Assembly: GCF_963921235.1 (NCBI RefSeq)
Contig: NC_086097.1
Location: 620,001 to 684,000, forward strand
Origin: Mobula hypostoma
Lineage: Eukaryota
DNA: 64,000 nt
Direction: 5' to 3'
Positions 8,115-54,815 of the stretch are shown one piece after another (the stretch's first letter is position 1; each line of letters opens with the position of its first letter). The translations under genes were made by a program, and so were the position numbers. Under the pieces are notes generated by a model. That model did not search any database, had not been told where the DNA came from, and saw nothing but the letters and a program-made list of their open reading frames with translations.

Positions 8115-10185
8115 GGGTCAATAACTATACTGGGTGTTTTAAATAGACCACTAAATATTAACAGGGACATCGAGGAACAGATAGGGTGATAGATTTTGGA
8201 AAGGTGTAATAATAACAGGGTTGTCGTGGTGAGAGATTTTAATTTCTCAAATATTGATTGGCATCTCCCTAGAGTGAGGGGTTTGTTAGGGTGGAGTTTG
8301 TTAGGTGTGTTCAAGAAGGTTTTTTGACACAATATGTAGATAGGCCTACAAGAGGAGAGGCTGTACTTGGTCTGGTATTGGGAAATGAACCTGATCAGTT
8401 GTCAGATCTCTCAGTGGGACAGCATTTTGGAGATAGTGATCACAAATCTATCTCCTTTACCATAGTATTGGAGAGGGACAGGAACAGACAAGTTAGGAAA
8501 GTGTTTAATTGGAGTAATGGGAAATATGAGGCTATCAGGCAGGAACTTGGAAGCAAAAATTGGAAACAGATGTTCTCAGGGAAATGTACGGAAGAAATGT
8601 GGCAAATGTTCAGGGGATATTTGCGTGGAGTTCTGCATAGGTACGTTCCAATGAGAAAGGAAAAGGATGGTAGGGTGCAGGAACCATGGTGTACAAAGGC
8701 TGTTGTAAATCTAGTCAAGAAGAAAAGAAGAGCTTACGAAAAGTTGAAAAAGCTAGGTAATGATAGAAAGCTAGAAGGTTATAAGGCTAACAGGAATGAG
8801 CTTAAGAAAGAAATTAGGAGAACCAGAAAAGGCCATGAGAAGACCTTGGTGGACAGGATTAAGCAAAACCCAAGGCATTCTACAAGTATGTGAAGAGCAA
8901 AAGGATAAGATGTGAGAAAATAAGACCAATCAAGTGTGACAATGGAAAAGTGTGTATGGAACCAGAGGAAATAGCAGAGGTACTTAATGAGTACTTTGAT
9001 TCAGTATTCACTACAGAAAAGGATCTTGGTGATTGTAGAGATGACTTACAACGGACTGAAAAGCTTGAGCATGTAGATATTAAGAAAGAGGATGTGCAGG
9101 AGCTTTTGGAAAGCATCAAATTGTTTATGTCACCAGGACAGGACAAGATGTACCCCAGGGACTGGACAAGATGTACCCCAGGCTACTGTGGGAGGCGAAG
9201 GAGGAGATTGCTGAGCCTCTGACGATGACCTTTGCATCATCAATGGGGACAGGAGAGGTTCCGGAGGATTGGAGGGTTGCGGATGTTGTTCCATTAATCA
9301 AGAAAGGGAGTAGAGATAGTCTTACTTCAGTGGTTGGTAAGTTGAGAGGCAGGATTTATGAATATTTGGAGAGATATAATATGATTAGGAATAGTCAGCA
9401 TGGCTTTGTGAAAGGCAGGTCATGTCTCACAAGCCTGATTGAATTTTTTAAGGATGTGACTGAACACATTGATGTTGGTAGAGCAGTAGATGTAGTGTAT
9501 ATGGATTTCAGCAAGGCATTTGACAAGGTACAACATGCAAGGCTTATTGAGAAAGTAAGGAGACATAGGATCGAAGGAGAAATTGCTTTGCGAATCCAGA
9601 ACTAGATTGCCCACAGATGGCAAAGAGTGGTTGTAGACAGGTCATATTCTGCATGGAGGTCGGTCACCAGTGGTGTGCCTCAGGGATCTGTTCTGGGACC
9701 CCTACTCTTTGTGATTTTTATAAATGACCTGGATGAAGAGGTGGAGGGATGGGTTAGTAAGTTTCCTGATGACACAAAGGTTGGGGTTGTTGTGGATAGT
9801 GTGGAGGGCTGTCAGAGGTTATAGCGGGACATTGACAGGATGCAAAACTGGGCCAAGAAATGGCAAATGGAGTTCAACCCATATAAGTGTGAGGTGGTTC
9901 ATTTTGGTAGGTGAAATATGATGGCAGAATATAGTATTAATGGTAAGACTCTTGGCAGTGTGGAGGATCAGAGGGATCTTGGGGTCTGAGTCCATTGGAC
10001 ACTCAAAGCTGCTGCGCAGGTTGACTCTGTGGTTAAGAAGGAATACAGTGCATTGGCCTTCATCAATCGTGGGATTCAGTTTAGGAGCCGAGAGGTAATG
10101 TTGCAGCTATATAGGACCCTGGTCACACCCCACTTCGATTACTGTGCTCAATTCTGGTCGCCTCACTACAGGAAGGATGTGGAAG

Positions 10186-13100
10186 AGAGAGTGCCAGTGC
10201 TACAAGACAATGATGGTAAGAATTGGAGGAGATGGCAGTTGAATGCGTGGCTGAGGAGTTGGTGCAGGGAGCAGGGTTTTAGATTTTTGGATCATTGGGA
10301 TCTCTTCTGGGGAAGGTGGGACCTGTACAGATTGGATGGGTTGCACCTGAACTCGAGGGGGAGCAATATCCTTGAAGGTAGGTTTGCTAGCATGGTTCGG
10401 GAGGGTTTAAACTAATTTGCAAGGGGGATGGGACCCAGAGCAACAGAGCAGTGAAAGAAGTGCATGGAGTAAAACCAGATCTAACATAAAGAGAGGCTTT
10501 GAGGAAAGAGAAGCAGAATAAACGGTGTAAAGACAGTAAGGTAGAAGGGCTGAAATGTGTGTACCTCAATACAAGAAGCATCAGGAAAAAAGGTGATGAA
10601 CTGAGAGCTTGGATACATACATGGAATTATCATGTAGTGGCCATTACAGAGACTTGGCTGGCAGCAGGGCAGGAATGGATTCTCAATATTCCTGGATTTC
10701 AGTGCTTTAAAAGGGATAGAGAGGGTGAAAAAAGGGGAGAAGGGGTGACATTACTGGCCAGGGATACTATTACAGCTACAGAAAGGGTGGGTAATGTAGC
10801 AGAATCCTCTTTTGAGTCAGTATGATGGAAGTCAGGAACAGGAAGGGAGCAGTTACTCTACTGGGGGTATTCTATAGGCCCCCTGGTAGCAGCAGAGATA
10901 CAGAGGAGCAGATTGGGAGGCAGATTTTGGAAAGGTGCAAAAATAACAGTGTCGTTATCATGGGTGACTTTAACATCCCTAATATTGATTGGCACCTGAT
11001 TAGTTCCAAGGGTTTAGATGGGGCAGTTTGTTAAGTGTGTTCAGGACAGATTCCTGTCACAGTATGTGGACAGGCCAACTAGAGACAATGCCAAACTAGA
11101 TCTAGTACTAGGTAATGAACCAGGTCAGGTCACAGATCTCTCAGTGGGTGAGCATCTGGGGCACAGTGACCACCGCTCCCTGGCCTTTAGCATTATCATG
11201 GCAAAGGATAGAATCAGAGAGGACAGGAAAATTTTTAATTGGGGAAGGGCAAATTATGAGGCTGTAAGACTAGAACTTGTGGGTGTGAATTGGGATGATG
11301 TTTTTGCAGGGAAATGTACTATGGACATGTGGTCGATGTTTAGTGATCTCCTGCAGGATACTAGGGACAAATTTGTCCCGGTGAGGAAGATAAAGAATGG
11401 TACGGTGAAGGAACCATGGGTGACAAGTGAGGCGGAAAATCTAGTCAGGTGGAAGAAGGCAGCATACATGAGGTTTAGGAAGCAAGGATCAGATGGGTCT
11501 ATTGAGGAATATAGGGAAGCAAGAAAGGAGCTTAAGAAGGGGCTGAGGAGAGCAAGAAGGGGGCATGAAAAGGCTTTGGCGAGTAGGGTAAAGGAAAACC
11601 CCAAAAGGCATTCTTCAATCATGTGAAGAAAAAAAGGATGACAGGAGTGAAGTAGGACCGATTAGAGATAAAGGTGAGAAGATGTGCCTGGAGGCTGTGG
11701 AAGTGAGCGAGGTCCTCAATGAATACTTCTCTTCAGTGTTCACCAATGAGAGGGAACTTGATGATGGTGAGGACAATATAAGTGAGGTTAATGTTCTGGA
11801 GCATGTTGATATTCAGGGAGAGGAGGTATTGGACTTATCCGTCCTAATCTATTTTAACAAGTCCCCGGGGCCTGATGGAATATTCCCCAGGCTACTCCAC
11901 GAGGCGAGGGAAGAGATTGCTGAGCCTCTGGTCAGGATCTTTATGTCCTTGTTGTCCACGGGAACGGTACTGGAGGATTAGAGGGAGGCGAATGTTGTTC
12001 CCTTGTTCAAAAAAGGTAGCAGGGATAGTCCAGGTAATTATAGACCAGTGAGCCATACGTCTGTGGTGGGAAAGCTGTTGGAAAAGATTCTTAGAGGTAG
12101 GATCTCTGGGCATTTAGAGAATCATGGTCTGATCAGGGACAGTCAGCATGGCTTTGTGAAGGGCAGATCATGTTTAACAAGCCTCAGAGTTCTTTGAGGA
12201 GGTGACCAGGCAAATCATGAGGGTAGTGCAGTGGATGTGATCTATATGGATTTTAGTAAGGCATTTTACAAGGTTCCACACGGTAGGCTTATTCAGAAAG
12301 TCAGAAGGCATAAGATCCAGTGAAGTTTGGCCAGGTGGATTCAGAATTGGCTTGCCTGCAGAAGGCAGAGGGTCGTGGTGGAGGGGGTACATTTGGATTG
12401 GAGGATTGTGACTAGTGGTGTCCCACAAGGATCTGTTCTGGGACCTATACTTTTCGTGATTTTTATTAACGACCTAGATGTGGGGGTAGAAGGGTGGGTT
12501 GGCAAGTTTGCAGACCACACAAAGGTTGGTGGTGTTGTAGATACTGTAGAGGATTGTCAAAGATTGCAGAGAGACATTGATAGGATGCAGAAGTGGGCTG
12601 AGAAGTGGCAGATGGAATTCAACCCGGAGAAGTGTGAGGTGGTACACATTGGAAGGACAAACTCCAAGGCAGAGTACAAAGTAAATGGCAGGATACTTGG
12701 TAGTGTGGAGGAGCAGAGGGATCTGGGGGTACATGTCCACAGATCCCTGAAAGTTGCCTCACACGTGGATAGGGTAGCTAAGAAAGCTTATGGGGTGTTA
12801 GCTTTCATAAGTTGAGAGATAGAGTTTAAGAGTCACGATGTAATGATGCAGCTCTATAAAACTCTGGTTAGGCCACACTTGGAGTACTGTGTCCAGTTCT
12901 GGTCGCCTCACTATAGGAAGGATGTGGAAGCATTTGAAAGGGTACAGAGGAGATTGACCAGGATGCTGCCTGGTTTAGACGGTATGCATTATGATCAGAG
13001 ATTAAGGGAGCTAGGGCTTTACTCTTTGGAGAGAAGGAGGATGACAGGAGACATGATAGAGGTGTACAAGATAATAAGAGGAATAGATAGAGTGGATAGC

Positions 13101-14862: not shown

Positions 14863-17800
14863 CAATAAGTACTCCATTTTGAGCACTGTTAGAGGGGACG
14901 ACATACAGTAGCTGAGCCTCTGGCACTGAGTCTGGGCCTGTGGCTCAGGTAAGTAGGGAACTGAGGAGGATGCAAGCAGTAACAGGTGACTCTATAGTCA
15001 GAGGACAGATAGGTGATTCTGTGGATGCAAAATAGGAAACACCCAGGTGCCAGAATTCAAGATGTTTCTGGACACGTGCACAATATCCTGAAAAAGGATG
15101 GTGAGTCGCCAGAAGTTGTGGTACATATTAATATCAATGAGATAGGAAGAAAAAGGGAGGAAGTACTGAAAAAAGAATGCAGTGAATTAGGAAGGAAGCT
15201 GAGAATCAGGACCTCAAAGGTAGTAATCTCAAGACTGCTGCCTATGCCATGCCACAGTGAGGGTAGGAATAGAATGAGATGGCAGATAAATGCGTGGCTG
15301 AAAAATTGGAGCAGGGGACAGGGATTCAGATTTCTGGATAATCGGGAGGTCATCTGGGGCAGGTGGGACCTGTACATAAAGGATGGGTTGTAATTGAAAC
15401 CAAGGTGGACCAATTTTCTTGTGGGCAGACTTAGTAGAGCTGTTGGGAGTGGTTTAATCTAATATGGCAGGGGATAAGAACCCGTATGATAGAGCTGAGG
15501 ATGAGACAGCAGATTTACAAGCAGATGATGGATGTAACATTAATGTAAGGAAGGTTAAACCAATGATTGTGTACAAATGCAGACAGCTAAATTGTACCAC
15601 AGAGGCAAAATTCAAAAGGGCAAAGAATGCAGGGCTGAAGGTGTTGTATTTAAATGTACGTAGGTTTCAGATTAAAGTGGAACTCGTGGCGCAATTAGAG
15701 GTTGGTCGGTATGACTATGTGGGCATCACTGAGTCGTGGCTGAAAGAAGGCCATAGTTTGGAGCTTAACATCACAGGATATACTTCATCGAAAAGAACAG
15801 CAGGAAGGCATAAACTGTGGTGTGGCTGTGTTGATAAGAGATGAAATTACATTTTTAGAAAGAGGTGACATAGGGTCAGAGAATGTTGAATGTTTGTGGA
15901 TGGAGTTAAGAAATTGCAAGGGTAATAAACCCATTATGGGAATCATATATAGGCCTCAAAATAGTAGCCAAGATTGAGATTGCAAAGGGAGCTGGAAAAG
16001 GCATGTAATAAGGGTAATGACACAATTGTAATGGGGGACTTCAACATGCAAGGGGATTGGGAAAATCAGATTGGTGTTGGATTGCAAGAGAGGGAATTTG
16101 TTGAATGCCTACAAGGTGGCTTTTTAGAGTAGCTTGTGCTTGAGCCAACTAGAGGAAAAGCTATCTTAGATTGGGTGTTGTGTAATAACCCAGACCTTAA
16201 CAGGGGGTTTAACATAAAGGAGCCCTTAGGAGACAGTAATCATAATATGATTGAATTGATACTGCAATTTGAGCAGGATCGCAATGGAATACAGGGACTC
16301 ACAAAGGGATGAGATAGGAGCTTGCTCAGGTGGATTGGACGAGGATACTGTCAGGGATGACGGCACAGCAGAGATGGCTGAAGTTTCTGGGAATGTCCCA
16401 CAGAGGAAGAAGTTCTCAAATGGTAGGGGTAGGGAACTGTGGCTGACACAAGATGTTAAGGACTGCATAAAAGTCAAGGAAAGGGCATAAAAGGTAGCAA
16501 AAGTGAGTGGGAAGGTTTTAAAATCCAACAAACAGCAACTAAGGAGGCTATAAGAAGGGAAAAGATGAAATATGAGGGCAGACTAGCCAATAATATAAAG
16601 CAGGATATCAAAAGTTTTTTTCAGTTATCTCAAGAGTGAAAAGGAGGTGAGAGTTGATATTAGACCACTGGAAAATGATGCTGGTGAGGTAGAAATGGAG
16701 GACAAAGAAATGGCATGTAAACTTAATGGGTAACTTGCATCTGTTTCACTGTGGAAGACACTAGCAGTGTGCCAGAGGTCTGTGAGTGTCCGGGAGCAGG
16801 GAAGCCTGCCACTGTTATTACAAAGGAAAAAGTGCTAGGCAAACTCAAAGATCTTAAGGAGGATAAGTCACCTGGACCAGATGGACTACATCCCAGAGTC
16901 CTCAGAGTGGTTCCTGAAGAGGTAACAGATGCATTGGTTGTGATCTCTCAAGAATCACTTGATTCTGACATGGTCCCAGATGACAGGAAGATTGCAAATA
17001 TCACACGACTCTTTAAGGGAGGAAGGCAAAAGAAAGGAAAGTATTAGCCAGTCAGCCTAGCCTCAGTGGGTGAGAAAAGTGTTGGAGTCTATTATCAAGG
17101 ATGAGATTTCAAGGTACTTGGAGACCAATGATAAAATAAGTCAAGGTCAGCATGGATTTTGTAAAGGGAAATTTTGCCTGACAAATCTGTGAAGAATTCT
17201 TTAAGGAAGTAACAAGCAGGATGGACAAAGGAGAGGCAGCGGATGTCATTTACTTGGATTTTCAGAAGGCGTTTGATAAGGTGCCCACATGACGCTGCTT
17301 AACAAGATAAAATCCTATCTTAGATACTGGCATGGATAGAGGATTGGCTGACAGGCAGGAGGCAGTGAGTGGGAATAAAAGAGGCCATTTCTGGTTGGCT
17401 GTTGGTGACTAGTGGTGTTCCTCAGGGGTCAGTATTGGGACCGCTACTTTTCACATTGTCAATGATTTAGATAATGGAATTGATGGCTTTGAGGCAAAGT
17501 TTACAGATAATACTTAGATAGGTGGAGGGGTAGGTAGTGCTAAGGAAGCAATGCAATTGCAGCAGGACTTAGACAAATTGGCAGAATGGGCAAAAAAGTG
17601 GCAGATGGGAAACAGTGTTGGGAAATGTATGATAAAGTATATTGATAAAAGGAAAAATAGTGCAGACTATTATCTAAGTGAGGAGAAGGTGCAAACATCA
17701 GAAGTGCAGAGGTACTTAGGAGTCCTTGTGCGAGTCAAGAAGGTTAATTTACAGGTTAAGTCTGTGGTAAAGAAGGCAAATACATTGTTGGCATTTATTT

Positions 17801-20158: not shown

Positions 20159-21560
20159 ATACGATTAACATGGTCATCCCTTTCTTATTCTTTAGTTCCA
20201 TCCATAACACCTCAGAGGAAGAGCTCTGCACTTTGTCTTGACTTAATGCTGCTGTAACATTTTCCTTGACTCGTAATGCCACCCCTCCTTCGTTATTCCC
20301 TCCCGCTCTACTGCATCTAAAACAATGGAAACCCAGTTCATTAAGCTTCCAGTCCTGCCTCTCCTGCAACCAAGTCTCACCAATGGCTACAATGGCATTA
20401 TTCCATGTAGGCTTAAAAACATATTTCTCCACAAGCACTCCACTATCTGCTTTAGCACTCTGGTTCCCATCTCCTTGCAACTTTGGTCTAACACCCCCCA
20501 CCCCCAAAACAGCATTAGCAAATCTTCCTGCTAAGATATTAGTTCCCTTCCAGTTCAGGTGCAAACCATCTCTTCTATACAGGTCCCAGCTTCCCTGGAT
20601 GGGAGCCGAATGATCCACAAATCTGAAGACCTCCCTTCTGCATCAACTCCTTAGTCACATGTTAAACTGTATGATCTTCCTATTTCTGGCCTCACCAGCA
20701 CATAGCATGGGTAGCAATCCCGAGATCATAACCCTGGTGGTCCTGTCCTTTAACTTAGAACCTAATTCCCTGAACTCACTTGGCAGGACCACATTACCTA
20801 TCCTACCTATGTCATTGGTACCAACATGGACTACGACCTCTGGCTACTCACTCTCCCATGTAAGAATCCTGTGGACTCAATGAAGATGTCCCTGACCCTG
20901 GCATCTGGGATGCAACAAGCTGTCTGGGAATCTCGTTCTTATCCACGTCAACACACACAAAATGCTGCAGGAACTCAGCAGGCCAGGCAGCATCTATGGA
21001 AAAGAGTAAACAGTTGACGTTTCAGGTCGAGACCCTTCTTCAGGATACCTCCTGTTTCCCTTGTGCATAGAACCTCCTTTCTGTTCCTCTAACCAATGAA
21101 TCCCCTATCACTACAGCTCACCTCTTCTCCCCCTCCCCTTCCCTTCTGAGCCACAGAGCCAGACTCAGGGCCAGAGGCCTGCATGCTGTGGCTTCTCCCA
21201 GTTAGGTCCCTCAAAAGTATCCAATGCGGTATATTTATTATTGAGGAGCCTAGCCACAGAGTACTGTGCACTGGCCGCCTATTCCCTTTCCCTCTTCCGT
21301 CAGTCACCCAGGTACCTGCCTCCTGCAACTTAGGGGTGACTACATCCCTGTAGCTCCTATCTATCACCTCCAAATTTTCCTGTAGGAAACAAAGGTCATT
21401 GTGCTACAGCACCAGGTATTTAACACGGTCCCTAAGGAGCTGTAGTACGGTGTACTGGTAGATATAGTTATCAGGGAGACTGGAGGTCTGCCAAAGTTCC
21501 CACATCCCACACGAGGCACATACCACTAACTCTGGATCCATTCTCAGCACATTAGAAATG
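20159..21560 (-). mobile_element. Highly decayed CR1 (ORF1 esterase/APE region)
   Basis: Minus-strand ORF 20145-20618 includes WDLYRRDGLHLNWKGTNILAGRFA and IVAIGETWL...GGVAL. Confidence 0.75.
21011..21045 (-). ncRNA. Minimal hammerhead motif in a short Penelope-derived insertion (about 20949-21045)
   Basis: Minus strand TC CTGAAGA AGGGTCTCGACCT GAAAC GTC AACTG. The 5' arm of helix I is truncated. Confidence 0.6.
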
Positions 21561-28203: not shown

Positions 28204-30774
28204 AAGAGAAATTGAAAGTAGTTATCCTTGGGCATGGCAAACAGAGTCTGTCAAATATTTGGGAATCATTATGCCAAAAGATTTGGCAAAATTATCAGAA
28301 TGCAATTATCAGCCTATATATAAAAAAATTAAGGAAGGTAATATAACAAGATGGATCCTAATTCCTTTTCTTGGTCTCAGTTGAAGGATTGAATCTATTA
28401 AAATGAATATACTGCCCAGACTGCTATATCTCTTTCAGACCCTACCAATAGAGATTAACCAAAATCAATTCAATGAATGGAACAAGATGCTATCAAGATA
28501 TATATGGCAAGGTAAAAGGCCCAGAATTCGTCTCAAAACTTTGCAATTAGCAAAGGAAGTGGGGGATGGGGTCTACCTTCTCTTAGAGATTACTATTTTG
28601 CAGCACAGTTGAGAGCCATGATATGCTGGTGCAACCCATCATGTGGCGCTCAATGGAAAAACATTGAGGAGAGAATACTTTCCATCCCCATATAGGTAAT
28701 TTTGGCTGATAACAACCTACAAAGTTACATAAATACTATTGATAACCCATGGGTGAAATGGACTCTTAAAATATGGAAAACTATTATAAAAAGAATATAA
28801 ACTAGAGAGAGACATTGCAATTCTTAAATGGTGTGCACATGACTCAGATTTCACGCCGAACAAACTGGATGCTAGATTTAAGGTCTGAACAACTAAAGGA
28901 ATAACAGCTATTTGCAATATAATGAAAAAAGGAACACTGTTTAGTTTTGAAATGCTCAAAGAGAAACACTTATTAGAAAAACAAGACTTTTATCGATATT
29001 TACAGATGCGACAGTATGTTAATAGGACGGTTAAAAATGTAACCAAGGCAAGTACATGTTTGATAGCGCTATTTAGAAAAGTATATAATTCAGACAACGG
29101 TAGTAGAATCATTTCAAGCGTGTATAAGGGTTTGTCAAATCTTAAAACACATTCGACTTCATACATTAAAACAAAATGGGAGAAGGAAGGAGGGATAATA
29201 ATATCTGAGGAAGAATGGACAATAATATGGAGGTATCAATGAAAGTCCACCAGTTCACAGAAATGGAGGGAGTTCAGGTGGAAAAACTTGATAAGATATT
29301 TTATTACACCCTCTCAGAAATCCCATTATGATAGTAACCTCCCTGTTTGCTGGAGAAATTGTGGAAATCAAAATGCAAACCATTATCATATTTTCTGGGA
29401 ATGTCTCGTTATCAAAGACTATTGGAGTGGGATACATAATGCCCTACAAGACATCTTTAAATGTGAAATACCCTCAGAAAGTAAGACCATACATTTTGGG
29501 TACATATCTCAAGAATGGTTGAAAAGAGATAAATATTTAATGAATATACTGCTGGTGGCTGGTAAAAAGACCCTTACCAGGAAATGGTTATCACAGGAGA
29601 GCCCAACTTTAAATGTATGGATGGAAATTACAATGAACATTTACAAAATGGAGAAGTAATTAATCATAAGTTGGAACAATTTGATTCATACTGGGAAAAA
29701 TGGTTTAACTATATAACACCTCATAGGCCTGATTTTATTCTCACAAGTCAATGAATATGTTGTAAAAAAAAATCACTCCCTACTTTGTACATAGTTTTCT
29801 TCTTTTGATTGTTCTTTCTTTCCTCTCCTTTCTATAAGTGTATACCTCAGATAAATATTATGTGGAGATTTGTGACAAATATAACTATATGATAGATATG
29901 TACAATACATCTTATGGAAAGTCTTGTTTGATGATGAACTTCAATGAAAAATAAATTACAAAAAAAAAACGTGTGAGAAATGTGAGAGTAATACAGAGAG
30001 GGGTGAGTGGACAGCAGTGGTCTGAAACAAAGGAAAGGTTATCTTTACCGCCATTGTGGCTGGAAAGGAGGCTATTCTAAACTTCATAAAACACAGGCCA
30101 AGTTCTAGATATGTACCCAGTTCAGAATACCAATATTTAGGAAGTATATTGATGTTTTATATGATATATCCATGCTTTCTGTTGGATTATCAGTACCTGA
30201 AGGTTATCATTGGGACTGTCATAGAGTTATACAGCACGATAACAGGGCGTTTGTCAAATTGTCCATGCCTACCAAAGTACATTCCTGAACTAGCCCCATT
30301 CATCTGCATTTGGCCTTTATCCCTCTCTTTCCCATCAAACAGTCATAGTCATACAGCACATAACTACACAAATTGGCCCTTCAATCAAATGATACATGCT
30401 GACCAAGATGCTAGACCCATTTGTCTACATTTGAACCATATCCCTCTTGACCTTTTTTATCCATGTACCCATTCAAATGTCTTTAGAATGCTGTAATTGT
30501 ACCTGCCTCTCCCACCTCCTCAGGCAGCTTGTTTCAAACACGCAGCACCATCTTTGTGAAAACATTGCCCTTCAGATCTCCATTAAATCTATCCCCCTCA
30601 TCTTAAATTTACATACTCTAATTTCAGACTTCCCTAGCCTAGGGAAAGGACTGTGAACATTCACGTTATGGATGCCCCTCATGATTTTATGTACCCCAAT
30701 AAGGTTACCCCTCAACCTCTTGTGCCCAGGCTACCTACAGTGATATCCAAATATTAATTAAAGTACAGGTGTCC

Positions 30775-39800: not shown

Positions 39801-41687
39801 TAAGGCCATGTCCTCTTGTATTGAGCAGTGGTGCCCTGGGGAAGAGGCACTGGCTATCCACTCTATCTATTCCTCTTATTATCTTGTACACCTCTATCAT
39901 GTCCCCAAAGAGTAAAGCCCTAGCTCCCTTAATCTCTGATCATAATGCATACTCTCTAAACCAGGCAGCATCCTGGTAAATCTCCTCTGTACCCTTTCCA
40001 ATGCTTCCACATCCTTCCTATAGTGAGGCGACCAGAACTGGACACAGTACTCCAAGTGTGGCCTAACCAGAGTTTTATAGAGCTGCATCAATACATCACG
40101 ACTCTTAAACTCTATCCCTCGACTTATGAAAGCTAACACCCCATAAGCTTTCTTAACTACCCTATCTACCGGTGAGGCAACTTTCAGGGATCTGTGGACA
40201 TGTACCCCCAGATCCCTCTGCTCCTCCACACTACCAATATCCTGCCATTTACTTTGTACTCTGCCTTGGAGTTTGTCCTTCCAAAGTGTACCACCTCACA
40301 TTTCTCCGGGTTGAACTCCATCTGCCACTTCTCAGCCCACTTCAGCATCCTATCAATGTCTCTCTGCAATCTTTGACAATCCTCTACAGTATCTACAACA
40401 CCATCAACCTTTGTGTCATCTGCAAACTTGCCAACCCACCCCTTTACCCCACATCCAGGTGGTTAATAAAAATCACGAAAAGTAGTGGTCCCAGAACAGA
40501 TCCTTGTGGGATACCACTAGGCACAATCCTCCAATCTGAATGTACTCCCTCCACCACGACCTTCTGCCTTCTGCAGGCAAGCCAATTCTGAATCCACCTG
40601 GCCAAACTTCCCTGGATCCCATGCCTTCTGACTTTCTGAATAAGCCTACCGTGTGGAACCTTGTCAAATGCCTTACTAAAATCCATATAGATCACATCCA
40701 CTGCACTACCCTCATGTATACGCATGGTCACCTGCTCAATGAACTCTATCAGGCTTGTTAGACACGATTTGCTCTTTCCCAAAGCCATGCTGACTGTCCC
40801 TGATCAGACCATGATTCTCTAAATGCCTATAGATCCTATCTCTAAGAATCTTTTCCAACAGCTTTCCCAACACAGACGTAAGGCTCACTGGTCTACAATT
40901 ACCCGGACTATCCCTACTACCTTTTTTGAACAAGGGGACAACATTCACCTCCCTCCAATCCTCTGGTACCATGCCCGTGGACAACCAGGACATAAAGATT
41001 CTAGCCAGAGGCTCAGCAATCTCTTCCCTCGTCTCATGGAGCAGCCTGGGGAATATTCCATCAGGCCTCACTGCTCTCTAACCAGCAATGCCACCCCACC
41101 TCCTTTCCTTTCATGTCTATCCCTCCTGAATATTGAATATCCCTGAATGTTGAGCTCCCATCCTTGGTCACCCTGGAGCCATGTCTCTGTGATCCCAACT
41201 ATATCATATTCATTAATAACTATCTGCACATTCAATTCATCCACCTTGTTACGAATGCTCCTTGCATTGACACACAAAGACTTCAGGCTCGCTTTTACAA
41301 CACTCTTAGCCCTTATACAATTATGTTGAAAAGTGGCCCTTTTTGATTTTTACCCTGGATTTGCCGGCCTGCCACTTTTACTTTTCACCTTACTACTGTT
41401 TGCTTCTACCCTCATTTTACACCCCTCTGTCTCTCTGCACTTGTTCCCAACCCCCTGCCACATTAGTTTAGATCCTCCTGAACAACAATAGCAAACGCTC
41501 CCCCTAGGACATTGGTTCCAGTCCAGCCCAGGTGCAGACCATCCTGTTTGTACCAGTCCCACCTCCTCCAGGACTGGTTCCAATGCCCCAGAAATTTGAA
41601 TCCCTCCCCGTTGCATCATTTTTCAAGCCACATATTCATCTGACATATCCTCCTATTTCTACTCTGACTAGCACGTGGCACGTGGCA
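36878..41687 (-). mobile_element. CR1 LINE (ORF1 end to 3' tail; 36878-39553 + 41075-41687), same subfamily as 22933-24370
   Basis: ORFs 41068-41277 (CVNARSIRNK), 39319-39507, 38284-38637, 37575-38027 (FADDTK) and 36972-37277. Confidence 0.9.
39554..41074 (-). mobile_element. 5'-truncated CR1 (copy C, subfamily of copies A/B) nested in CR1
   Basis: Colinear with 2010-3540. The host gttaatctcctct|ctaaccagcaatg resumes across it. Confidence 0.9.
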
Positions 41688-45800: not shown

Positions 45801-46520
45801 CTCGGTTCCCACCCCCCAACAATTCTAGTTTAAACTCTCCCCAGTAGCCTTAGCAAACCTCCCCGCCAGGATATTGGTCCCCCTGGGATTCAAGTGCAAC
45901 CAGTCCTTTTAGTACTGGTCACACCTGCCCCAAAAGAGGTCCCAATGATCCAGAAATCTGAATCCCTGCCCCCTGCCCCCTGCCCCCTGCCCCAATCCCT
46001 CAGCCACACATTTATCCTCCACCTCATTCTATTCCTATTCTCACTGTTGTGTGGCACAGGCAGTAATCCCAAGATTACTACCTTTGCAGTCCTGCTTCTC
46101 AACTTCCTTCCTAACTCCCTGTCATCTTTTTTCAGGACCTCTTTCCTTTTTCTGCCTATATCATTGGTACCAATATATATCACGACCTCTGGCTGTTCTC
46201 CCTCCCACCGCAGGATATCTTGGACATAATCTGAAACATCCCGGACCCTGGCACCTGGGAGGCAAACTACCACCCAAGTTTCTTTCCTCTGTCCACAGAA
46301 TTGCCTGTCTGACCCCTAAGTATAGAGTCCCCTATCACTCTTCCTTTCTCTACCCTTCTGAGCCACAGGGCTGGACTCTGTGCCAGAGGCGCAGCCACTG
46401 TTGCTTCCCCCAGGTAGGCAGCTCCCCCCCCAACAGTACTCAAACAGGAGTACTTATTGTCAAGGGGTACAGCCACAGGGGTACTCTATAGTACCTGACT
46501 CTTCTAATTCCCCCTCCTGA
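42886..46520 (-). mobile_element. Near-full CR1 (ORF1 SGNH esterase + ORF2), decayed
   Basis: ORF1 VIGDS, CLPGARVRDVS, VVIYIGTNDIG; APE 45243-45704; RT 43006-44663; tail at about 42890. Confidence 0.9.
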
Positions 46521-52575: not shown

Positions 52576-54815
52576 GTATATTGTAAATAGCTGCAGTCCC
52601 AGCACCAAGATTTGCGGTACCCCACTAGTCACTGCCTGCAATTCTGAAAGGGACCCGTTAATCCCTACTCTTTGTTTCCTGTCTGCCAACCAATTTTCTA
52701 TCCATGTCAGTACCCTACCCCCAATACAACGTGCTCTAAGTTTGCCCACTAATCTCCTATGTGGGACCTTATCAAAGACTTTCTGAAAGTCCAGGTACAC
52801 TACATCCACTGGCTCTCCCTTGTCCATTTTCATAGTTACATCCTCAAAAAATTCCAGAATGTCAAGCATGATTTCCCCTTCGTAAATCCATGCTGACTCG
52901 GACCGATCCTGTTACTGCTATCCAAATGTGCCACTATTTCATCCTTTATAATTGACTCCAGCATCTTCCCCACCACTGATGTCAAGCTAACTGGTCTATA
53001 ATTCTCTGTTTTCTCTCCCCCTCCTTTCTTAAAAAGTCGGATAACATTAGCTACCCTCCAGTCCTCAGTAACTTATCCTGAATCTATAGAACATTGGAAA
53101 ATGATTACCAATGCGTTCACAATTCCAAGAGCCACTTCCTTAAGTACCCTGGGGTGCAGACCATCAGGCCCTGGGGATTTATCAGCCTTCAGTCCCATCA
53201 GTCTATCCAACACCATTTTCTGCCTAATGTGAATCCCCTTCAGTTCCTCTGTTACCCTAGGTCATCCGGCCACTATTCCGTCTGGGAGATTGTTTGCGTC
53301 TTCCCTAGTGAAGACAGATCCAAAGTACCTGTTCAGCTCGTCTGCCATTTCCTTGTTCCCCAGAATAAATTCACCCGTTTCTGTCTTCAAGGGCCCAACT
53401 TTGGTCTTAACTAATTTTTTCCTCTTCACATACCTAAAGAAGCTTTTACTATCCTCCTTTATATTCTTGGCTAGCTTGTCTTTGTATCTCATCTTTTCTC
53501 CCCGTATTGCCTTTTTAGTTATCTTCTGTTGCTTTTTAAAAGTTTCTCAATCCTCTGGCTTCCTGCTCATCTTTGCTATGTTATACTTCTCTTTTATTTT
53601 TATACTGTCCTTGACTTCCCTTATCAGCCACAGTCACCCCTTACGCCCCTTAGAATCTTTCTTCCTCTTTGGAATGAACTGATCCTGCACTTTCTGTATT
53701 ATTCCCAGAAATACCTGCCATTGTTGTTCCACTGTCATCCTTTCTAGGGTATCTTTCCAGTCAACTTTGGCCAGCTCCTCCCTCGTGGGTCCATAGTCCC
53801 CTTTGTTCAACTGTAACACTGACACTTCCGATTTTCCCTTCTCCCTCTCCAATTGTAGATCAAAACTTATCATATTATGGTCACTACCTCCTAATGGCTC
53901 CTTTACCTTGAGTTCCCTTATCAAATCTGGTTCATTACACAACACTAAATCCAGAATTGCCTTCTCCTTGGTAGGTTCCAGTACAAGCTGCTCTAAGAAT
54001 CCATATCAGAGGCACTCCACAAACTCCCTTTCTAGGGGTCCAGTACCAACCTGATTTTCCCAGTCTACCTGCTTGTTGAAATCCCCCATAACAACCATAG
54101 CATTACCTTTGTGACATGCCAATTTTAACTCTTGATTCAACTTGCACCCTACATCCAGGCTACTGTTTGGGGGCCTGTAGATAACTCCCATTAGGGTCTT
54201 TTTGCCCTTACAATTTCTCCGTTCTATCCATACTGACTCTACATCTCCTGATTCTATGTCACCCCTCGCAAGGGACTGAATTTAATTCCTCACCAACAGA
54301 GTCACCCCACCCCCTCTGCCCACCTGTCTGTCCTTTCGATAGGACGTATACCCTTGAATATTCACTTTGCAGCCCTGGTCCTCTTGCAGCCATGTCTCTG
54401 TTATTCCCACAACATCATACTTGTCAATTTCCAACTGAGCCTCAAGCTCATCCACTTTATTTCTTATACTTCGTGCATTCATATATAATACTTTTAATCC
54501 ATTACTCCCCTCACCTTTCACATCGATTCCTATTGCACTTGGCCATACTCTCCGATCCCTTCCTGAGCTTTCTGCCCCATTAATTCTGTTGTCTTTCTTA
54601 ACTTACTTTATTCTCTCTTTCCCTTTAACTCCATCCTTATATTTCCTCTCCTCCCCACCACTATTTAGTTTAAACACACCAGTGTAGCAGTGGCAAACCT
54701 GCCTGCCAGAATGCTGGTCCCCCGCCTGTTAAGGTGCAACCCGTCCCTTTTGTATAATTCATCCTTACCCCAAAAAAGATCCCAGTGGTCTCAGAATCTA
54801 AATCCCTGCTTCCCG
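52576..54815 (-). mobile_element. CR1 LINE (ORF1 C-terminus, APE, RT N-half)
   Basis: GTSILAGRFATATLVCLN*; LKVLYMNARSIRNK; GVIYRPPN; SDHNMI; LDFQKVFDKVPH. Confidence 0.88.

Follow-up and report, generated by a model that had tools for sequence, protein, structure and literature searches.

An in-frame U_UUA_AAC heptamer abutting the ORF1 stop codon of CR1-like retrotransposons: a candidate -1 recoding signal

The stretch of Mobula hypostoma DNA analyzed here (64,000 nucleotides of contig NC_086097.1, called the window below) contains many nested pieces of CR1-like long interspersed nuclear elements (LINEs), whose two open reading frames, ORF1 and ORF2, meet at a compact junction. ORF1 encodes a GDSL/SGNH esterase, as the full ORF1 of a sibling of the family-A copy at position 10406 matches Pfam Lipase_GDSL_2 with an E value of 3e-14, above the curated cut-off. 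In the -1 frame relative to ORF1, residues 62-257 of the ORF of sibling L014 match Exo_endo_phos (E 2e-18), the apurinic/apyrimidinic endonuclease (APE) domain of ORF2; homologues of ORF2 carry PF03372, PF14529 and PF00078, and reverse transcriptase (RT) motifs are visible in translations of the window. The nearest named protein matches come from batoid rays and sharks, and the elements appear to be CR1-like LINEs, a label that rests on ORF1 relatives in birds, turtles and lizards and on the name used in an original prediction made from the window. At the junction, the bases U_UUA_AAC stand in ORF1 phase and are followed at once by the ORF1 stop codon, with ORF2 in the -1 frame. Here, we describe a computational analysis of this junction in the window, across the genome assembly and in relatives beyond it. 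We present evidence that the string is the typical ORF1 end of several families and is under constraint at the nucleotide level, and we weigh the readings under which it might direct the translation of ORF2.

The window contains six such junctions (Table 1). Five of them had been named by the original prediction and lie at the positions and on the strands that it assigned; the sixth is decayed and was recovered by a translated self-comparison of the window, which also returned 5'-truncated copies starting downstream of the junction. Taken alone, the heptamer shows no enrichment in the window (11 matches where 9.4 are expected, a count reached by 33 of 100 shuffles), and its unusual feature is its position, in phase and as the last two sense codons of ORF1. 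A search for TTTAAACTAR that allowed one mismatch gave six matches in the window, of which five were identified as ORF1 ends; the sixth, which has one mismatch, is TATAAACTAG at 28796-28805. Junction copies of each family were then taken from the whole 3.48-Gb assembly and oriented; families D and E were represented by 20 stretches of 301 nt and family F by 2 stretches of 110 nt. TTTAAAC is present in 28/30 copies of family A (window copy 10406), 30/30 of family B (window copy 54674; loci L031-L060), 25/30 of family C (window copy 41472), 7/10 of family D (window copy 15453), 9/10 of family E (window copy 45834) and 2/2 of family F, a chance find with no copy in the window. NNT TTA AAC TAR is the family-typical ORF1 end in all six CR1-like families, with the heptamer in ORF1 phase and in the X_XXY_YYZ form. 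Because the typical sequence of families C and D has the exact heptamer, the single mismatches in the window copies at 41472 and 15453 are private mutations. The central claim of the original prediction, a conserved in-frame U_UUA_AAC at the ORF1 stop, was thereby borne out in six families, and it extends to four intact elements from outside this genome that are described below. The junction observation is genuine, is not random and reaches well past a single window.

Conservation at the junction was assessed by comparing families A-E, each represented by its majority letters, over 41 columns without gaps. All nine columns formed by the heptamer and the TA of the stop are invariant between the families, against 7 of the 32 flanking columns. 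Before Leu, families A to E have G, C, D, G and S, yet the codon of this residue always ends in T; Leu itself is always TTA, which accounts for only 19 of 221 Leu codons (9%) in the rest of ORF1 in families A-C, where AAC makes up 37 of 77 Asn codons and T occupies 22% of third positions. As judged from these sequences, the pattern at NNT TTA AAC fits selection on the RNA string rather than on the protein, in line with the nucleotide-level constraint that had been proposed from the codon-final T and the TTA. The accompanying statement that the flanks of these copies barely align was too strong, as the C-terminal 130 residues of ORF1 are 54-62% identical between families and seven flanking columns do not vary. 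Since the families are related to this degree, they are not independent samples.

The phase of ORF2 is shared as well. Across families, the APE domain was found in the -1 frame in 27/28 copies of family A, in 16/30 of family B (with 5 others in +1, 4 in frame 0 and 5 in which APE was not found), in 22/30 of family C and, among copies with the heptamer, in 5/7 of family D and 7/9 of family E. The -1 phase is thus that of the majority of copies in each of families A-E, and it is also that of 4/4 intact outside elements. In the window, the -1 frame leads into APE in the copies at 10406, 54674 and 41472, three copies being also the number for which this had been asserted. The domain lies in frame 0 at 45834 and in +1 at 15453, and because genome copies of both families read -1, these two shifts are private indels. 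The -1 frame of the copy at 10406 is interrupted by one stop (10487-10489), correctly attributed beforehand to a point mutation: the other 29/29 family-A copies have Tyr at this codon, and in RNA or DNA contigs position 10489 is A>C, which removes the stop. As a separate observation, the G run just past the stop of family B varies from about 4 to 10 G among copies (L031-L060), these length changes shifting APE into other frames in 9/30, and constitutes a mutation hot spot beside the signal.

Table 1. Coordinates of the ORF1/ORF2 junctions in the window and of the parts of the family-A copy at 10406
Feature	Position	Strand	Sequence or remark
ORF1/ORF2 junction, family A	10406-10415	+	GGT TTA AAC TAA
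ORF1/ORF2 junction, family D	15453-15462	+	GGT TTA ATC TAA; A>T private; G run one base shorter, placing APE in +1
ORF1/ORF2 junction, decayed	20483-20492	-	GTTAGACCAA; copy with APE N-terminus deleted
ORF1/ORF2 junction, family C	41463-41472	-	GAT CTA AAC TAA; T>C private; family with UAAUG overlap, ATG in -1
ORF1/ORF2 junction, family E	45825-45834	-	AGT TTA AAC TAG; APE in frame 0 in window copy (indel)
ORF1/ORF2 junction, family B	54665-54674	-	TGT TTA AAC TAA, then a G run of variable length
ORF1 3' part of 5'-truncated family-A CR1-like copy, GDSL/SGNH esterase C-terminus	10190-10415	+	From translation; ends ...REGLN, stop 10413-10415
TAG in -1 frame, five codons 5' of heptamer	10388-10390	+	5' limit of ORF1/ORF2 overlap; -1 open only 5 codons upstream in 30/30 family-A copies
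U_UUA_AAC heptamer, ORF1 phase	10406-10412	+	GG-T TTA AAC
ORF1 stop TAA abutting heptamer	10413-10415	+	Adjacent in all six families
G-rich box	10423-10433	+	GGGGGATGGGA, begins 10 nt past heptamer; G5-7 run at similar place in nearly all lineages
-1 frame linker, heptamer to endonuclease domain	10406-10588	+	FKLICKGDGTQSNRAVKEV...; private TAA 10487-10489; open in sibling copies
AP-endonuclease domain of ORF2, -1 frame	10589-11176	+	Pfam match of sibling L014; coordinates transferred by position

The reading frames overlap by 2-18 codons in most lineages and by 50 codons in family C, the -1 frame opening 5 codons upstream of the heptamer in family A and 18 codons upstream in family B. No AUG for ORF2 is conserved across the families, and three of them lack one ahead of the endonuclease domain. 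In family A the first Met of the -1 frame is typically codon 185, within the Pfam APE match at 62-257, so a protein begun at that AUG would be missing the greater part of the domain; family E is without a Met ahead of APE, family B has its first Met inside the first APE motif, and family D has a Met at about codon 30. The absence of an AUG before APE, claimed for the copies at 10406 and 54668, holds for family A as a whole and for the 54668 copy, in which the first Met is codon 64 and falls in the first APE motif. Only in family C does the stop codon overlap an AUG that lies in the ORF2 frame, and no AUG stands at that place in families A, B, D and E or in the outside elements. In the family-D copy of the window (15453-15480), the one-base-shorter G run brings the ATG of TAATATGG in frame with APE, such that a single indel creates an AUG-started ORF2. 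A sawshark protein, P0171, was considered as a counter-example; it starts at the ATG of TAATATGG in +1 and later matches the -1 reading of family C, and it was dismissed because it derives from a copy with an indel.

Beyond this genome, the family-A ORF1 was searched against 1.84 billion cluster representatives (50% identity clusters), yielding 2769 matches of which the best 150 were examined; 95 of these retain the last esterase block and at least 12 further residues. Among these 95 relatives, 59 end in Asn, the final pair being Leu-Asn in 46, Gly-Asn in 8, Glu-Asn in 2, Ser-Asn in 2 and Phe-Asn in 1, and 36 end in a residue other than Asn; Leu is replaced by Ile, Val or Met in none. In the 37 relatives with a 21-residue tail, the entropy of the last two positions is 0.66 and 0.53 bits, as low as that of the catalytic DGLHL block, and that of positions -3 to -12 is 2-3.5 bits. 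In 45 of the 46 proteins, Leu-Asn is preceded by a residue that has U-ending codons (A, Y, S, G, T, F, H, N or V), and in the remaining one by E. A stop codon adjoining the heptamer is implied in these 46 relatives by their terminal Leu-Asn. Leu-Asn ends are present in ORF1 proteins of barn swallow, painted turtle and tegu, and amniote CR1 therefore shares this ending. The similar junction in amniote CR1 that the original prediction mentioned agrees with these proteins as far as the Leu-Asn ending is concerned, the heptamer itself having been seen outside this genome only in metagenome elements. Gln-Gly-Asn is the ending of a sister group of ORF1 proteins (P0055, P0066, P0068, P0080, P0083, P0089, P0102 and P0138), and a few proteins end in Glu-Asn (P0067 and P0101); such endings would be compatible with G_GGA_AAC or G_GAA_AAC in the position of the heptamer. 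A search of the ray genome with P0068 gave candidates for an ORF1 of the Gln-Gly-Asn type, and these proved to be another Leu-Asn family, F.

The pattern used to search metagenome DNA required the heptamer, the TA of the stop and the DGLHL codons; its results speak to the presence of the junction and the phase of ORF2, not to frequency. The 80 pattern loci are mostly chance matches, the real elements being L112, L117, L120, L131, L140, L144 (the same as L180), L146, L158 and L171. A further locus, L179, was rejected as an element since it resembles a bacterial esterase. The intact elements L112, L117, L131 and L171, on contigs from four sources, have the same junction, with the -1 frame open from the heptamer into APE and no Met before the domain; that frame opens 2, 5, 14 and 7 codons upstream of the heptamer, respectively. 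Because phase was absent from the search pattern, its agreement in these elements is informative. Protein-guided scans found no relatives in metagenome contigs or in viral contigs. Among predicted ORF2 proteins, 35 of 120 models reach at least 40 residues before APE and one of them has FKx, namely P0162, an ORF1-APE fused gene model; this check for FKL carries no information, as predictors choose internal or alternative start codons. P0151 (swallow, 860 aa) was rejected as a transframe product, its ORF1 and ORF2 parts being joined by skipping sequence. Public gene models (P0162, P0032, P0049 and P0151) fuse CR1 ORF1 and ORF2 pieces together or with host exons under host gene names such as 'hydroxyacid oxidase 2 isoform X1', and these four models are annotation artefacts caused by CR1 elements.

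In the family-A copy at 10406, the linker region between the heptamer and the endonuclease domain has several stops in the other two frames. Upstream of about 10185 (window 9900-10190), the RT tail of another CR1 copy directly adjoins the ORF1 fragment, and the copy is a 5'-truncated element that is either nested in an older CR1 copy or abuts one. The genome copies of family A are 97-98% alike, and half or more of the words sampled from its junction (window 10200-10760) are present in runs from five differently coded organisms (runs X1-X17); family A is young and common to related species.

The RNA around the junction carries one recurrent feature apart from the heptamer and the stop. A run of 5-7 G lies 7-11 nt past the heptamer in families A-F and in L117, L120, L131, L144 and L171, and takes the form GGGGGATGGGA in families A, C, D and F. 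This run could be a linear stimulator of recoding or simply the Gly codons of ORF2, and both fit equally. In L112 its place is taken by a 9-bp hairpin of -17.1 kcal/mol that begins 10 nt past the heptamer. A G-quadruplex at the G box was discarded as a candidate, most families being without four G tracts. Contigs spanning the junction, which come from an RNA library and from three runs presumed to be of RNA, have no changed letter and no indel; they attest presence rather than expression level, are weak evidence in that DNA may be present, and give no hint of RNA-level correction at the junction. Transcriptional slippage was likewise rejected; the runs within the heptamer are only three bases long, and the junction contigs contain no indel.

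These observations lead us to favor, with confidence little above even, the view that NNU_UUA_AAC_UAR at the end of ORF1 acts as a -1 recoding signal of CR1-like LINEs with an esterase ORF1, giving rise to an ORF1-ORF2 fusion. Interpretation of the string as a recoding signal is well supported; that the product is specifically a fusion made by frameshifting is plausible. Under this proposal, most ribosomes would end translation at the stop, setting the esterase protein free, and a minority would slip back by one base on U_UUA_AAC, with tRNA-Leu leaving UUA for UUU and tRNA-Asn leaving AAC for AAA. The slipped ribosomes would then read CUA, continue through a Lys/Glu-rich linker of about 45-60 codons and enter APE and the reverse transcriptase. 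Such slippage would yield an ORF1-ORF2 fusion with the transframe sequence ...GLN-LICK... (Gly-Leu-Asn-Leu-Ile-Cys-Lys), the analogue of Gag-Pol. The slowly decoded adjacent stop might replace a structured stimulator, perhaps with help from the G run that lies about 10 nt downstream. Given the very small amount of ORF2 protein that LINEs require, as established for L1, a heptamer lacking a strong stimulator could suffice. A more specific and more tentative version, to which we give somewhat less than an even chance, is that a structure-free 'slippery-stop' signal, consisting of U_UUA_AAC_UAR and a G run about 10 nt downstream, is active in esterase-bearing CR1/L2-type LINEs of vertebrates and invertebrates, including bird and reptile CR1, and yields the ORF1-ORF2 fusion, with sister clades using G_GGA_AAC or G_GAA_AAC.

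Several findings weigh against frameshifting as the route to ORF2. A conserved 3' structure was not found, RNAalifold giving 0 pairs over 10 lineages in a search that did not cover pseudoknots, and the sequence past the heptamer is rich in purines and folds weakly (in family B, at about -5 kcal/mol per 130 nt). Among five outside elements only L112 (z -3.3) and L171 (z -3.2) fold better than shuffles, L117, L120 and L131 having z values of -0.8 to +1.25. The stop adjoins the heptamer in every lineage, that is, in six families and all outside elements, an arrangement that frameshifting need not have but that a termination-dependent event would. In family C the sequence AAC TAA TGT forms a UAAUG stop-start overlap with its ATG in the ORF2 frame, placing a Met at codon 3 in 29/30 copies (loci L062-L090), and families A and D carry the near-cognate codons AUU and AUA where family C has AUG. 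The ray families also have UGGGA 89-110 nt upstream (at -110 and/or -89), where it arises from Trp-Asp codons; UGGGA is the core of calicivirus restart motifs. Finally, the evidence from other taxa is either at the protein level or comes from a DNA pattern that itself demanded the heptamer. Of the gag-pol-like frameshifting to an esterase-APE-RT fusion that was first proposed for this junction, the heptamer, the -1 position of ORF2, the constraint and the lack of a conserved ORF2 AUG have stood up, whereas the missing conserved 3' structure, the ever-adjacent stop and the UAAUG of family C speak against it. For these last three reasons a termination-linked restart in the -1 frame, which would make a separate ORF2 protein, stays in play; the near-cognate codons and the upstream UGGGA of the ray families would fit it as well. 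Ribosomes could reinitiate nearby, at a UAAUG as in SART1 or free of AUG as reported for L1, or the deacylated tRNA-Asn in the P site could re-pair from AAC to AAA with elongation resuming at CUA. Precedents exist in the use by SART1 of UAAUG with a downstream structure and in the AUG-independent initiation of L1 ORF2, as described in the available portions of PMC3708506 and PMC5009743. We nevertheless regard restart as rather unlikely, though the main competitor. The would-be start codon is not conserved, being AUU, AAU, AUG, AUA and GAA in families A to E and GGU, GAA, GAU and AAU in outside elements. Restart would also find no use for the 5' half of the heptamer, in which the wobble T belongs to a variable residue and TTA is a rare codon, since re-pairing needs only A_AAC, and the upstream UGGGA is absent in L112, L120 and L171.

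Two further explanations would detach the string from the translation of ORF2. It may have been kept for another reason, with Leu-Asn serving as a functional C-terminus of the esterase or the bases having some other role as an RNA or DNA motif, and ORF2 being expressed by a different route. The conservation of Leu-Asn in the protein, as strong as that of the catalytic DGLHL block, is what such a role would produce, and the ending is not universal, given the 36 of 95 relatives that end otherwise. Selection on the protein leaves unexplained, however, the invariant wobble T under a residue that may be G, C, D or S, the fixed TTA, and the constant -1 phase of ORF2; moreover, in the 59 Asn-ending relatives Leu is never swapped for Ile, Val or Met. 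We consider this explanation improbable. Alternatively, the identity of the junctions could reflect chance or shared ancestry in the absence of constraint, the families being too little diverged at these ten bases. Their relatedness, which means that five or six sequences are not independent, lends this some force, but 25 of 32 neighbouring columns have changed against 0 of 9 in the motif, and the same ending recurs in relatives less than 50% identical, from birds, turtles and lizards to metagenome elements; we give it very little credence.

Among the LINEs of birds and reptiles CR1 predominates, and it is also abundant in fish genomes. How LINEs translate ORF2 from a bicistronic RNA is unsettled, according to the introduction of PMC3708506 and, for the mechanism of L1, the available text of PMC5009743. 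Were a conserved ten-base signal to mark the ORF1 stop in so large a group of LINEs, a short reporter would put this question to a direct test. If a fusion is made, these elements would have a Gag-Pol-like control over the ratio of their two proteins and a means of loading the enzyme onto its own RNA particle, and vertebrate genomes would harbor a genome-wide class of -1 frameshift sites that work without a recognizable RNA stimulator. Should the slippery-stop version be correct, it would represent the first widespread and ancient -1 frameshift signal in non-LTR retrotransposons and would provide a mechanistic answer, for one large LINE group, to how ORF2 gets translated. The junction additionally accounts for gene predictors mis-starting or mis-fusing CR1 ORF2 models. 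In the searchable full-text literature, which did not extend to key older CR1 papers, no description was found of a slippery heptamer at the CR1 ORF1-ORF2 junction or of frameshifting there. Frameshifting in LINEs is, as an idea, already in print, and an earlier description of this CR1 signal may exist. The available part of a recoding review mentions, among non-LTR elements, only HeT-A, TART and L1 (PMC5009743), and for Paramecium LINEs either +1 frameshifting or restart has been proposed (PMC5405496).

Several of the closest parallels to the CR1 junction are viral. U_UUA_AAC together with a pseudoknot forms the -1 frameshift site between ORF1a and ORF1b of coronaviruses and arteriviruses. 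The CR1 junction shares with it the identical heptamer and phase, a polymerase-type ORF in the -1 frame and constraint at the nucleotide level; it differs in the stop that abuts the heptamer, in its cellular LINE host and in that no conserved downstream hairpin was found. In luteoviruses and dianthoviruses the heptamer is directly followed by the 0-frame stop and the polymerase lies in -1, and frameshifting relies on adjacent and long-range RNA structures. The CR1 heptamer is likewise followed immediately by the stop of the upstream ORF, with an enzyme ORF in -1, but no conserved RNA structure was detected at its junction. As in the Gag-Pol of retroviruses and LTR elements and in PEG10, as treated in the available text of PMC5009743, a protein of RNA-handling or structural type comes first in CR1 and an enzyme ORF follows in -1, and a low ratio of fusion would be expected; unlike Gag-Pol, CR1 is a non-LTR element, its ORF1 is an esterase rather than Gag, and it has no protease to process a fusion.

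Among LINEs, the Dictyostelium elements TRE5-A and TRE3-A require a -1 frameshift, according to the passage on them in PMC5911963. They resemble CR1 in being APE-type LINEs with ORF2 in -1 for which frameshifting is invoked, and CR1 differs from them in clade and host; that passage contains no analysis of a heptamer or of conservation. Human L1 is, like CR1, a LINE with a bicistronic RNA whose ORF2 is rare and has no need of an AUG (PMC5009743, PMC3708506, in the portions available). Its ORF2 is initiated independently of AUG by a mechanism of unknown type, and a spacer separates the two ORFs of L1 with no slippery heptamer involved, as stated in the available text of PMC5009743. In SART1, translation of ORF2 depends on UAAUG stop-start coupling and a downstream structure, as given in the passage of PMC3708506 that describes Kojima 2005. 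The CR1 junction is similar in that the stop of ORF1 and the start of ORF2 are packed within a few bases, and family C even has UAAUG. In contrast to SART1, however, UAAUG is found in only one of the six CR1 families, and it is the heptamer, not an AUG, that is conserved.

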